DNA of 39,249 nt, taken from a virus (Duplodnaviria > Heunggongvirae > Uroviricota > Caudoviricetes). Position numbers and translations under genes: made by a program. The stretch spans positions 1 to 39,249 of IMG/VR virus record IMGVR_UViG_2861079508_000003. The stretch is one strand, 5' to 3'. Below are positions 2,497-16,963 of the stretch, one piece after another (within the stretch, counting starts at the first letter, position 1; each line of letters opens with the position of its first letter). The notes under the pieces are model-generated. The model saw nothing but the letters and a program-made list of their open reading frames with translations, was not told where the DNA came from and ran no database searches.

Positions 2497-3185
2497 TACT
2501 CACCTCCTTTGATGCGAATGCCAGCGGCACGGGAATCATTCCATCGCTTTACTTCTTCACGAATTACGTCAATGCATTCTTTCGAATCCATTAGGTAATC
2601 TTCATCAAAAAGCCTTTCCTGTTCGTTTTCTATCGCAACAATGATTGCTTCAACTAACTTTTGTGCCTGAGAACCACTTTCTAACTCTGCAATGCGCTTC
2701 TCTGCGGCTTCCAGCTTCTCGCGCATATCGTCAACGTACTCGACCAGAGAACCGCCAGCAGGAATTTCGCACTCCTCGACCAGTTGGAAGTAGATATCAG
2801 CTGCGGCCCGTGTGTTGCTATACCTAGCGTCGCCCATCTCACCTTCACGAAGAGCATCGCGTTCGGCGGTAAGATTGGCTATTTTGCTGTCTTTGCCTTC
2901 CAGCTCAACGCGCAGCTTCCAAACCGTAAGCGCAATCTCCTCGTTCTCCTGATCGCGGCTTTTGATGTATTGCAGGTTTCTTTCCCGTTCATCCAGCAGT
3001 GCCAGCACGGTTTCTGGTCCGGTCAGAAATTTGAAGGCGTTGAGCGCATCAATATCCACACCGTAATCTTTAAGTTCCTGTTCACTTAACAAGTCATCAT
3101 CAGCTGGCAACATTAACAGGCGTTCCATTGCTGGAATTGCACGTTCCGCCGCCTCACGCAGCGCCTGATAGTCAATCTTGCTCAC
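2496..3185 (-). CDS. Ead/Ea22-like coiled-coil protein (229 aa)
   Basis: Acidic, coiled-coil-rich protein in the int-proximal accessory region; resembles recalled Ea22 family proteins. 4-nt overlap with upstream gene. Confidence 0.5.
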   Translation of the reverse strand: MSKIDYQALREAAERAIPAMERLLMLPADDDLLSEQELKDYGVDIDALNAFKFLTGPETVLALLDERERNLQYIKSRDQENEEIALTVWKLRVELEGKDSKIANLTAERDALREGEMGDARYSNTRAAADIYFQLVEECEIPAGGSLVEYVDDMREKLEAAEKRIAELESGSQAQKLVEAIIVAIENEQERLFDEDYLMDSKECIDVIREEVKRWNDSRAAGIRIKGGE

Positions 3186-3733
3186 TGGTTGCCTCCTTTG
3201 CGAAGCTGGTCGGCGAACAAACGTACACCAGACGCTTCACTGCGTAGAAACTTAACGGCATAATCAAAACCACCTCGTTCTGCGTCGTCTGCTCCGTTGT
3301 CGAGGTTATCTGCGTACATCTCTACCCCCTGCGCCCGTACTTCAGCCAGGAAAGCATCGGTGGCTGGGGTTTCGATATCGTTAATTTCAGGAAGAATCTC
3401 TTCCCATGTGGCGATATCGCCATTCAAATGCCATCCGGCAATTCCACTGGAGTTATCCGCAACACTGCGAACGGCTTCAATAGTTTCGAGCATTACCGCA
3501 TTCTCCGCCGCAAGCGCCGAAAACTTCTCGTGTGCCAACTTAACAGCCGCATCAGCCTGCTTAATTGACTCAATCGCTTTCTGGTGGTCTTCGGACAGAG
3601 CCGAAATCTTGGCCTCCGCTTCAGCAAATTTACGCACCAGATATTCAGCGTTTGTTTCGTTAACCTTTAAATCTCGTGGGATGCATTTACCTTTCAGAAA
3701 ACCATCTATCTCAATTAGTGACATTTGTTTCAT
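3182..3733 (-). CDS. Ead/Ea22-like protein (183 aa)
   Basis: Similar composition and position to the neighbouring Ea22-like gene; coupled start/stop overlaps. Confidence 0.5.
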
Positions 3734-3894
3734 TTCTTCCCACTCCGCAACATCGCATTCAGATATTTGTTTTGATTCACTGATGGAAAAGAATTTCTCT
3801 TAAGCAATTCCTCTCTCGATGGCATTGGCTTTACGCGTTGGCGAATAATCATTTCTGCCGGAAGAATGCCGGGATTGTATGCAAGTCCTCTCAT
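3730..3894 (-). CDS. Hypothetical small protein (about 54 aa), not in ORF track
   Basis: ATG overlaps the stop of the 96-aa gene and its stop overlaps the start of the next gene (ATGA at both ends). Confidence 0.3.
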
Positions 3895-4181
3895 GATTTA
3901 CTCTCCACGAACTGGTCAACGGCCATGCTAAGTGACACACCTAAAGTCTCGATATGCTGCTGAATATCCTGTAGCGTCTGCGCCTGAGATAACAGGATTT
4001 CACGGTTGCATAATTCTTTAACCAGATGCTCAAACTTGCTGTAATAACCGATACGGCTTAGTGTTTCTTTCCCTGCATTCTCGCCTTCTTTGATAATTCC
4101 TCTTTCGCTAAGAATCAGATCGTGTTTGGTTCCGGTAATAACGTATTTGCCTAGGTCGATGTTTAGCTTCATTGTTTTCAT
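3891..4181 (-). CDS. Hypothetical protein (96 aa)
   Basis: ORF-track ORF in operon orientation immediately downstream of abc2; no family recognised. Confidence 0.45.
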
Positions 4182-4191
4182 TGTTAATTAC

Positions 4192-4485
4192 TCAGTCATT
4201 ACTGATAGCGCCATAGCGTGAGCGGTAATTACGCAGGCGCGGGTCAATTTCAGGGAAGTGGGTATATGTGGCTTTGCGGAATGGTCGGATTGATGTCTGG
4301 TAAATTCGCTCTCGTTCTTCTTTCTCTGCAAGCCATATACAGTGGCGAAATTCCTTTTCCTCTTTCGTTTCCTGCGGTAGCGACATTATCCGATCGTAGT
4401 TTCTTCTGAATTTATCCAGCACCTCCGATACGGAATTGCCGGAACAGCGGCGCGGGTCATCCGCACCATACAGAGGCGCTGGCAT
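4192..4485 (-). CDS. abc2: Anti-RecBCD protein Abc2 (97 aa)
   Basis: Near-identical over its length to the P22 Abc2 sequence as I recall it (MPAPLYGADDPRRCSGNSVSEVLDKFRRNYD...); expected position next to erf. Confidence 0.8.
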   Translation of the reverse strand: MPAPLYGADDPRRCSGNSVSEVLDKFRRNYDRIMSLPQETKEEKEFRHCIWLAEKEERERIYQTSIRPFRKATYTHFPEIDPRLRNYRSRYGAISND

Positions 4486-4508
4486 AATGGAATCCTTATT
4501 TTGCTAAT

Positions 4509-4892
4509 CTAGAATGGAATTGAATCGTCGTATTCAGGATGATTTTGATGATTGCTACTTTGCTGCTGTTGGCTGTTTCCTGAAGCTGCAAATCCAATCT
4601 TCGCATTCAGTAATTCAAGAGTGATTGATTGACCATTTTGCCCCTGATAAACATCAACCCTGATGTTTTCTCCGGTAATTTCTACAATGCCACCTTCAAC
4701 AAGAACACTACGGTAGTAATCCGCTTGCGCTCCCGGCTTGGCAAATACAACGGCGCTGTAGTTTGTCCATTCTTTCTTTTTTGTCTGGCGATCGTAATAC
4801 TGAACGCCAGCACGGATGTTGAATCCGATATTTTCCCCGGCCTGAAACTCTCTTGCGGGTTTGTTTAGTCTTACAGTAATCGAATGTGCCAT
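4509..4892 (-). CDS. ssb: Phage single-stranded DNA-binding protein (127 aa from internal ATG)
   Basis: C-terminal acidic tip ..PEYDDSIPF matches the SSB DDDIPF tail, preceded by a Gly/Gln-rich linker; ATG overlaps the erf stop (TAATG). Confidence 0.7.
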   Translation of the reverse strand: MAHSITVRLNKPAREFQAGENIGFNIRAGVQYYDRQTKKKEWTNYSAVVFAKPGAQADYYRSVLVEGGIVEITGENIRVDVYQGQNGQSITLELLNAKIGFAASGNSQQQQSSNHQNHPEYDDSIPF

Positions 4893-5497
4893 TAAGCAGC
4901 CGCTCCTTCTAATTCGTCTCGTCTGATGTTGTAAACGTCCTGCGCTTTGTGCTGCTCCGGTGTGCCTTCGAGCATCTTCCACGCTTTGGCGAACGCCTGT
5001 TTAAGCTCTTCTACGGTGTTTTTCTGCAATGCTGCGTCAGTGAATGCTTTTAGAACCTGTTCAGGTGTAGGTGATGGTTTTGATTGCTTTGCTGCTGCGT
5101 TCTGCTGATGTTTATGCTCGTCGGTATCTGCATCTTTCGCATCATCAATGCCGAACAAACCATTGAGGCAATACTTGCGTGCATAAGAGCTTGTAGCTCC
5201 AGTAACTTGTGCAGAATCCATTCCTTTCTTGCTTTCTTCCTCTCGTGCAAGAGCGGTTGCCGTATGACTGTTTTCGCCATCGGTAATAGTTGCCGTGGCT
5301 TTCACATAATACCGATCACCAATCAACACAACTTCATCGCTGATTGATAAAAACAGGCCATTCAGTAACGGCTTAACGCCTTCAAGAATGTCTTCGCAGC
5401 TTCTGTATTTATATTTACCGAATGAGTTGTACTGATTTTTTGGCGCATTCAGATTCTCCTGAATGGCTGCCAGTCTTGCGTAAAATTCTTTGCTCAT
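4892..5497 (-). CDS. erf: Essential recombination function protein Erf (single-strand annealing protein)
   Basis: From ATG at 5497 the N-terminus MSKEFYARLAAIQENLNAPKNQYNSFGKYKYRSCEDILEGVKPLL.. closely matches recalled P22 Erf; the track's longer form starts at an upstream alternative codon. Confidence 0.85.
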   Translation of the reverse strand: MSKEFYARLAAIQENLNAPKNQYNSFGKYKYRSCEDILEGVKPLLNGLFLSISDEVVLIGDRYYVKATATITDGENSHTATALAREEESKKGMDSAQVTGATSSYARKYCLNGLFGIDDAKDADTDEHKHQQNAAAKQSKPSPTPEQVLKAFTDAALQKNTVEELKQAFAKAWKMLEGTPEQHKAQDVYNIRRDELEGAAA

Positions 5498-5598
5498 ATG
5501 TTTGTTCTCAGAATGGACATTCCCCAAGGAAATAACGCTGATTTAATACTTCGACTCGGGACAAATTAAGGCATACCAGCATTCCTTCGCGGTCGCCA

Positions 5599-5757
5599 TT
5601 ATGGCGATACCAGAGAGCTTTCTGCGTGTACATGCGTCTCTGTAACTTGCTCTCCTTCACTGTGGTTGCAAGTGACATGAATATCTCCTTCGTTACCGAT
5701 TAATTCTTTCATCTGACGAATGAATTCTTCGTCTGACCAGTTATCTGTAAAACTCAT
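5599..5757 (-). CDS. Hypothetical small protein at the kil position (about 52 aa)
   Basis: Internal ATG overlaps the cIII stop (ATGA); in lambdoid phages the gene after cIII is kil. Function inferred from position only. Confidence 0.35.
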   Translation of the reverse strand: MSFTDNWSDEEFIRQMKELIGNEGDIHVTCNHSEGEQVTETHVHAESSLVSP

Positions 5758-16807: not shown

Positions 16808-16882
16808 GGGTCAGTCGTATAAAGGTCATTACGGAAGGCTGTTAACCTTCTTATCGTGGTTCGAGTCCACGCTGTCCCGCCA
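16808..16882 (+). tRNA. tRNA-Asn (anticodon GTT), putative
   Basis: Hand-folded cloverleaf: 7-bp acceptor stem (one U-U mismatch), D-arm with GG, anticodon loop CTGTTAA, T-arm CGTGG-TTCGAGT-CCACG, discriminator G and encoded CCA. Confidence 0.5.
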
Positions 16883-16887
16883 AATAT

Positions 16888-16963
16888 GCTGGTTTAGCTC
16901 CAATGGTAGAGCAGTCGCCTTGTAAGCGAATGGGTAGCGGTTCAAGTCCGTTAACCAGCACCA
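16888..16963 (+). tRNA. tRNA-Thr (anticodon TGT), putative
   Basis: Hand-folded cloverleaf: acceptor GCTGGTT/AACCAGC, D-stem GCTC/GAGC, anticodon loop CTTGTAA, T-arm AGCGG-TTCAAGT-CCGTT, discriminator A and encoded CCA; 76 nt. Confidence 0.6.

Follow-up and report, generated by a model that had tools for sequence, protein, structure and literature searches.

The stretch of DNA analysed here (the window) comprises all 39,249 nucleotides of the IMG/VR virus record IMGVR_UViG_2861079508_000003, assigned to the Caudoviricetes, and at positions 4192-5497 it carries three consecutive genes, erf, ssb and abc2, whose outer limits are the stop codon of abc2 and the ATG of erf. All three lie on the minus strand, a point omitted from a preliminary description of this DNA. 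The first, erf (4892..5497), encodes the Erf single-strand annealing protein of 201 amino acids (aa); the second, ssb (4509..4892), a 127-aa divergent phage SSB (single-stranded DNA-binding protein) of the HK97 gp40 type, or "SSB-1b"; and the third, abc2 (4192..4485), the 97-aa anti-RecBCD protein 2. None of them is a chance open reading frame (ORF), as their matches to Pfam ERF (2.1e-44), Pfam Anti-RecBCD_p2 (2.1e-63) and PHROG 44 (2.3e-28) attest, and the three identities, already proposed in the preliminary description, were borne out by Pfam, PHROG and P22 comparisons; we regard them as close to certain. We conclude that the region is a recombination (Rec) module with the HK97 type of sequence, situated in the leftward early operon of an Escherichia coli phage or prophage of the lambdoid group. 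Annealase, SSB and anti-RecBCD genes are contiguous in it without a nuclease, an arrangement that fits the functional type represented by HK75 (PMC12315714), and no match to nuclease families in Pfam or PHROGs was found among the flanking ORFs at 3182-4181 and 5508-5757.

The erf and ssb genes are translationally linked. Their junction on the minus strand reads GAA-GGA-GCG-GCT-GCT-TAATG-GCA, in which the TAATG (4890..4894) combines the TAA of erf (4894-4892) with the ATG of ssb (4892-4890), one base being common to both, and the Shine-Dalgarno sequence of ssb, AAGGAG (4903..4908), lies within the final erf codons (..ELEGAAA) with a 10-nucleotide (nt) spacer to the ATG. Direct reading of the sequence gives a 23-nt spacer between ssb and abc2, inside which is the Shine-Dalgarno sequence of abc2, AAGGA (4493..4497), and the overlap is therefore limited to the erf/ssb pair. 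Thus the heading of the preliminary description, which announced overlapping start and stop codons for the module, holds for erf/ssb and fails for ssb/abc2, although its text had claimed the overlap for erf/ssb only. The same 1-nt erf/ssb overlap is present in HK97, HF4s, vB_EcoP-720R6 and the prophage loci L006, L007, L009, L012, L014 and L017, and the P22 erf/abc1 junction likewise has a 1-nt overlap. We also observed that the AAGGAG is encoded by the Leu-Glu-Gly codons of the conserved terminal ..ELEG motif of Erf, and because those codons contain the ssb Shine-Dalgarno sequence, the conservation of the motif may partly be a nucleotide-level constraint.

What is the evidence that the 127-aa protein is an SSB? 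The PHROG 44 to which it matches is annotated as "single strand DNA binding protein," and when the gp40 family was aligned with canonical SSBs by hhalign the probability was 94.5% (E 7.4e-8, 73 columns). The canonical set consisted of E. coli SSB and eleven tip-bearing prophage SSB ORFs, six of which are confirmed PF00436 matches; the E. coli SSB sequence used is 73-79% identical to the four Enterobacterales prophage SSBs in the alignment, which match PF00436. In E. coli SSB the residues W40, W54, F60 and W88 stack on single-stranded DNA (ssDNA), and in the hhalign alignment their columns are occupied by Y32, W42, F50 and Y82 of the phage protein. Among 34 aligned homologues F50 never varies and Y32 and W42 almost never do; most rows, though not all, have Y or F at position 82. 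The same alignment has a conserved domain of ~100 residues, a Q/P/G-rich linker that differs between members in composition and in length (~15 to ~100 residues) and, in most members, a D-D/E-x-I/P-P-F tip.

An AlphaFold2 (AF2) model of the 127-aa protein, built on the 34-homologue alignment, has a mean predicted local distance difference test score (pLDDT) of 84.7, with most values above 90 in the first 100 residues and one 10-residue block at 83, and predicts an OB-fold domain in residues 1-104 (4581..4892, minus strand) with the topology beta-beta-beta-alpha-beta-beta. When this model was compared with the PDB using Foldseek, the top 50 matches were all either SSBs (bacterial or mitochondrial) or PriB, with a probability of 1.00 and E-values of 4e-5 to 1e-3, at 10-19% identity to solved SSBs. 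The domain is followed by a short, disordered, Q/S/N-rich linker at residues 105-120 (4533..4580, minus strand; pLDDT below 50 at residues 107-123) and then by the acidic C-terminal tip YDDSIPF at residues 121-127 (4512..4532, minus strand). The conserved acidic tip was correctly recognised in the preliminary description: the translation ends HPEYDDSIPF, and the DDSIPF aligns with the ..DFDDDIPF of E. coli SSB, one residue off the host DDDIPF. The phage protein thus resembles E. coli SSB in its OB fold, four aromatic positions, disordered linker and terminal D-D-x-I-P-F tip, and differs from it in its linker (~16 residues versus ~60) and total length (127 versus 178 aa).

Several observations weigh against this assignment. 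The 127-aa protein had no match in Pfam, including the SSB family PF00436, even at E<=10, and its score against NCBIfam TIGR00621 was 16.4 bits (E 0.0088), well under the cut-off of 53.95 bits. The Foldseek TM-scores of the model are just moderate, at 0.40-0.55. The literature searched yielded no published experimental work on proteins of the gp40 type, and the binding of ssDNA, the oligomeric state and any contact with Erf are all properties that we infer for this type of SSB. Given the lack of a Pfam match and the low TIGR00621 score we class the protein as a divergent relative ("SSB-1b") outside canonical PF00436. Pairwise searches gave little: BLASTP against E. coli SSB aligned the tail alone and the best match in a phmmer search of PDB sequences, although an SSB, had an E-value of only 0.042, so that profile and fold methods were needed. 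On balance we place the 127-aa protein within the lineage of bacterial SSBs, as a highly divergent representative.

The preliminary description had also stated that abc1 lies between erf and abc2 in P22 and that an SSB takes its place here, and both statements are upheld. The P22 order is arf-erf-abc1-abc2, and the two modules rely alike on hijacked RecBCD and are free of a nuclease; they differ in that P22 has Abc1 (94 aa, helix-turn-helix (HTH)) where the window has the SSB, and arf where the window has an ORF resembling HK75 gp33. Could the 127-aa OB protein nonetheless stand in for Abc1 functionally, as an accessory factor against RecBCD that acts on this enzyme and not on ssDNA? It does occupy the slot of P22 abc1 and shares the 1-nt overlap after erf. 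However, BLASTP gave no alignment between the 127-aa protein and Abc1 at E<=100, and neither of the models that describe Abc1, Sigma70_r4_2 and PHROG 323, is matched by it. With an OB fold predicted and no alignment to Abc1, the SSB reading therefore stands. Moreover, Abc1 is an HTH protein, the 127-aa protein has the full SSB signature, including the aromatic stacking positions, and related prophages have canonical SSBs in the equivalent slot, all of which makes substitution for Abc1 very improbable.

The role of Abc1 itself has been described as unknown (PMC9836394). We observed that P22 Abc1 (L004:26970-27254) scores 27.0 bits against the HTH model Sigma70_r4_2, for which the Pfam threshold is 25.7, and matches PHROG 323, "transcriptional regulator"; these matches suggest that it is a DNA-binding protein. 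In the prophage of Pantoea piersonii (L010:3604-4131) a gene for an HTH-HNH endonuclease lies between erf and a canonical ssb, and we considered whether Abc1 might be a remnant of that endonuclease, but found no meaningful similarity.

Having an SSB gene next to erf proved to be the usual situation. Scanning one genome per species gave 69 Erf loci; ORFs downstream of erf were called in 61 of these, and at least one was present in 60. An SSB-type acidic ..PF tip, which serves here as a proxy for SSB, was present on an ORF within two genes downstream in 22 of the 60. In Enterobacterales the ORF directly after erf, meaning one that overlaps its stop or begins at the next base, encodes a gp40-type SSB in four loci (L006, L012, L014 and L017) and a canonical PF00436 SSB that overlaps the erf stop in another three (L007, L009 and L013). 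In Vibrio phages an Erf that is 56% identical to that of the window adjoins a gp40-type SSB that is 50% identical, and almost 80% of Firmicutes phage erf genes adjoin ssb (PMC8093625). From the occurrence of the pair in both Enterobacterales prophages and Vibrio phages we conclude that it is old and widespread and that abc1 of P22 is the exception. The suggestion in the preliminary description that the annealing protein has a different accessory partner here is therefore right in that the gene encodes an SSB and not Abc1, but the contrast was overstated, as Abc1 is no known partner of Erf and ssb after erf is usual.

Comparison with characterised phages places the module more precisely. The erf-gp40-abc2 genes of HK97 (NC_002167) have 96-97% nt identity to it over the module, in identical gene order and with the identical 1-nt erf/gp40 overlap, and HK97-type modules are also found in HK446, HK542, HK106, Sf101, CUS-3, H-19B and Stx phages. 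The predicted structure of HK97 gp40 resembles those of bacterial SSBs, for which reason it was named "SSB-1b" in a 2025 Genome Research survey (PMC12315714). That survey of 325 lambdoid phages took Rec modules to be assembled from genes for SSBs, nucleases, annealases and anti-RecBCD proteins in some combination, with the type "anti-RecBCD + SSB + annealase, no nuclease," prototype HK75, in 27 of the 325 (PMC12315714). HK75 itself has the three functions in the order of the window, as gp32 (Rad52-like), gp31 and Abc2, and gp32 has a C-terminal domain (CTD) homologous to that of the window Erf; the annealase cores differ, PF04098 in HK75 and PF04404 in the window. HK75 gp31, 168 aa long, belongs to the canonical PF00436 SSBs; its DDDIPF has further residues after it and hence does not form the very C-terminus. 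The HK75 locus has been cloned as a gp33-Erf-gp31-Abc2 "Rec locus," in which gp31 and gp33 were called uncharacterised (bioRxiv 10.64898/2026.07.10.737580). Similarly, HK620 has the order annealase, SSB, Abc2 (Sak4-SSB(HkaK)-Abc2), and its SSB has an acidic tip, ..PPF (PMC5928155). The HK620 SSB stimulates its annealase in vitro as well as in vivo, and needs its last six residues to do so, as it does for loading of the annealase on SSB-coated ssDNA (Hutinet et al. 2018, PMC5928155). The HK620 annealase is a RecA-fold Sak4, unlike Erf, and its SSB is of the type "SSB-2" and has been tested biochemically, whereas the gp40 type is known from sequence and model.

The Erf of the window scores 151.6 bits against Pfam PF04404 (cut-off 25) over residues 5-143, the N-terminal annealing (ERF/Rad52-like) domain (5069..5485, minus strand), and also matches PHROG 155 (1.6e-57). 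It is 99-100% identical to the Erf proteins of HK542, HK544 and H-19B. With P22 Erf its full-length identity comes to 75% (E 9e-111), being ~93% in the first 150 residues and dropping sharply in the last 50. Given this 93% identity of the N-terminal domain, the protein would be expected to form a ring-shaped oligomer with ssDNA-annealing activity, like P22 Erf. The CTD (residues ~145-201; 4895..5065, minus strand) is a predicted three-helix bundle and is only 41% identical in amino acids to the CTD of P22 Erf; residues 139-201 modelled alone by AF2 gave a pLDDT of 89.5, with helices at model residues 7-20, 24-37 and 43-61 (model residue 1 being Erf residue 139). At the DNA level, abc2 (4178-4488) and erf codons 1-153 (5037-5497) are 90% and 79% identical to P22, respectively, and no similarity to P22 was found across 4489-5036, which holds the 3' end of erf and ssb. 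We therefore conclude from the DNA comparison that the unit exchanged relative to P22 is the Erf CTD together with the SSB.

Abc2 matches Pfam PF11043 Anti-RecBCD_p2 with 211 bits over model positions 1-97 of 97, and also PHROG 656, and is 93% identical to P22 Abc2. P22 Abc2 attaches to RecC, on which its structure has been solved, and the proposal is that it redirects RecBCD towards the loading of Erf (PMC9836394). From the 93% identity, the window Abc2 would likewise bind RecC and alter the response to Chi and recombinase loading.

How might the three proteins work together? By analogy with the characterised relatives we propose that, after infection or induction, Abc2 would bind RecC, and RecBCD, which otherwise destroys linear phage DNA, would instead supply 3' single strands. 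The phage SSB, produced in step with Erf, would coat this RecBCD-made ssDNA, and its exposed tip, which nearly copies the DDDIPF of the host, would recruit Erf, most plausibly via the helical CTD of Erf, and possibly host SSB-client proteins too. Erf would then displace the SSB and anneal complementary strands, so serving end-joining, circularisation and replication that depends on recombination. We give this explanation as a whole a probability of roughly 0.6. Support for it comes from positional equivalence, in that canonical SSBs overlap the erf stop in the three Enterobacterales loci named above and one lies between the HK75 annealase and Abc2; from the conserved pairing of Erf with an adjacent gp40-type SSB in Vibrio phages; and from three precedents, namely the tip dependence in HK620 (PMC5928155), the CTD of lambda Redbeta (PMC6393309) and Abc2 on RecC (PMC9836394). 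The step in which the SSB tip directly loads Erf is one to which, taken by itself, we allow slightly less than an even chance. For this step Redbeta might be a functional analogy: its C-terminal three-helix bundle binds the SSB C-tail, as does lambda Orf (PMC6393309), and the Erf CTD is likewise a helical bundle of ~60 residues set apart from the annealing core. Nevertheless, the Redbeta CTD has no sequence similarity to the Erf CTD, and it also binds lambda Exo whereas the module in the window is without a nuclease.

A tip so close to that of the host, with DDSIPF one residue from DDDIPF, raises the question of whether the phage SSB acts mainly on the host SSB interactome (RecO, RecQ, ExoI, PriA, Pol III chi), recruiting or titrating its members such that host repair and replication factors are steered to or from phage ssDNA, while Erf uses whichever SSB is present. 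The Erf CTD does occur in many modules without any phage SSB, so Erf-type proteins can evidently work with host SSB alone, and the lambdoid survey notes that one annealase type can occur with or without a phage SSB (PMC12315714). The tight translational linkage of ssb to erf is kept, however, from E. coli to Vibrio phages, and the HK620 annealase depends directly on the SSB tip (PMC5928155). We therefore consider it unlikely that the host interactome is the main target, and note that such a role is compatible with the recruitment of Erf by the SSB tip, the two not being exclusive.

Position in the genome bears on a further proposal, in which the main task of the SSB would lie in replication or anti-defence and its place in the Rec module would be that of a passenger. 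It might shield phage ssDNA, or take over from host SSB and so let the phage escape (or be sensed by) systems of defence that keep watch on SSB or ssDNA. Phage SSB proteins are reportedly sensed by Retron/OLD-type systems, the Rec locus interacts with P2 OLD via the neighbouring gp33 (bioRxiv 10.64898/2026.07.10.737580), and accessory genes abound in the early-left regions of lambdoid phages. Yet HK75 gp33 alone was enough to set off P2 OLD toxicity, and did so no less strongly than the whole HK75 locus, with no such effect reported for gp31 (bioRxiv 10.64898/2026.07.10.737580), and the ssb gene always lies between annealase and abc2, outside the replication module. We judge a chiefly replicative or anti-defence role improbable.

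The CTD of Erf is not confined to annealases with the ERF core. A tblastn search of phage genomes found it in 156 phage records, C-terminal on annealases of four cores: an ERF core in the window, HK97, HK022 and P22; a Rad52_Rad22 core in HK75 gp32, where the common similarity is limited to the last 55 residues; a RecT core in EC.W1-9 and phiEt88, both of which adjoin a PDDEXK exonuclease; and a Sak4-like AAA_24 protein in Erwinia phage vB_EhrS_59 (51% identity over 55 residues). Besides window 4895-5065, the carriers include L075:5417-6124, L005:2305-3168, L076:1736-2677 and L077:1808-2686. Single-sequence searches of large protein sets with the 63-aa CTD returned just Erf fragments and a few weak matches, and a fold search did not separate it from thousands of other three-helix bundles. 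We tentatively suggest, while rating the odds as rather against it, that these ~55 residues may be a portable docking module that lambdoid phages have joined to four annealase cores, whose common partner would be the SSB acidic tip, host DDDIPF or phage DDSIPF, with the gp40-type SSB as a private, co-translated loading platform for annealases carrying the module. We also looked for co-variation of CTD subtype (..ELEGxxA or ..ELKQxA) with the downstream gene and there was no clean sorting; for instance, the P22-type CTD co-occurs with Abc1 in P22, with a canonical SSB in HK75 and Yersinia (L013), and with neither in Erwinia (L008).

The sequences around the module and in the remainder of the window are those of a lambdoid mosaic, in which P22-type virion genes (portal, terminase, coat and tailspike) are joined to an early-left region of the HK97/HF4s/CUS-3 type. 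The virion genes are closest to those of IME10, HZ41 and APC_JM3.2, and IME10, the best match to the virion half, has an HK75-type Rad52-like annealase instead of Erf. Besides these P22-like virion genes, the window differs from HK97 on both sides of the module. On the 5' side of erf, HK97 has gp42 as a single ORF of 83 aa, and relative to it a frameshift divides the window sequence into two ORFs that overlap, one of 52 aa and one of 56 aa. The 52-aa ORF (5599..5757, minus strand), in the position of arf in P22, is a homologue of HK75 gp33 (tblastn, 92% identity over 52 aa). We had also considered the 56-aa ORF (5508-5678, minus strand) as the gp33 homologue, but BLASTP found no similarity, the true homologue being the overlapping ORF in another frame; the 56-aa ORF contains gp42's C-terminal portion, and its PHROG match is 1723, "recombinase." Directly after abc2 the window has an extra 96-aa ORF (3891-4181, minus strand) of DUF5405 and PHROG 154 ("replication initiation protein"), which HK446 and vB_EcoP-720R6 share and which HK97, HK106 and Sf101 lack, the match to these three being interrupted to leave two pieces.

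Farther away are tandem genes for tRNA-Asn(GTT), at 16808-16882, and tRNA-Thr(TGT), at 16888-16963, both on the plus strand. The Thr(UGU) tRNA of HK446 rescues phages from the OLD tRNase (bioRxiv 10.64898/2026.07.10.737580), and because the window has a tRNA-Thr(TGT) gene, this phage may carry an HK446-like tRNA counter-defence against OLD.

The module is common. Its three-gene block was found at >=80% coverage in 555 of 5,426 complete E. coli genomes, and a megablast search with the 2-kb segment matched 229 phage records, the segment being 96-97% nt identical to HK97, HK446, HK542, Sf101, HK106, vB_EcoP-720R6, the PhiR12 phages and many Stx phages. Despite this prevalence, annotation of the middle gene is uneven. 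The Prokaryotic Genome Annotation Pipeline (PGAP) labels the block in the listed E. coli genomes (hits H192-H195) as "ERF family protein," "hypothetical protein" and "phage anti-RecBCD protein," and no Pfam or NCBIfam model covers the gp40-type SSB subfamily. Some phage records are more informative: the gene is named "ssb protein" in HF4s, and Vibrio and Yersinia phage records name the gp40 homologues "single strand DNA binding protein" or "nucleic acid-binding OB-fold protein." We also noticed that the gp40-type ssb of HF4s (L002:1910-2305) is annotated as two ORFs, of 94 and 36 aa, a split that would detach the acidic tail.

We conclude that the module described here was already known, as a common HK97-type Rec module with gp40 published as SSB-1b (PMC12315714), and that our findings leave current understanding of it unchanged. 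Their value lies mainly in annotation, in that the middle gene is still a "hypothetical protein" in the RefSeq entries of hundreds of E. coli genomes though it encodes a divergent SSB. The module also amounts to a naturally occurring recombination system of three genes that contains no nuclease and operates together with host RecBCD, and developers of recombineering seek cognate annealase-SSB pairs because compatibility between annealase and SSB tail limits portability (PMC5928155; PMC13490951). Finally, the CTD common to annealases of different cores offers a modest lead, but a concrete and testable handle, on how unrelated phage annealases engage SSB-coated DNA.

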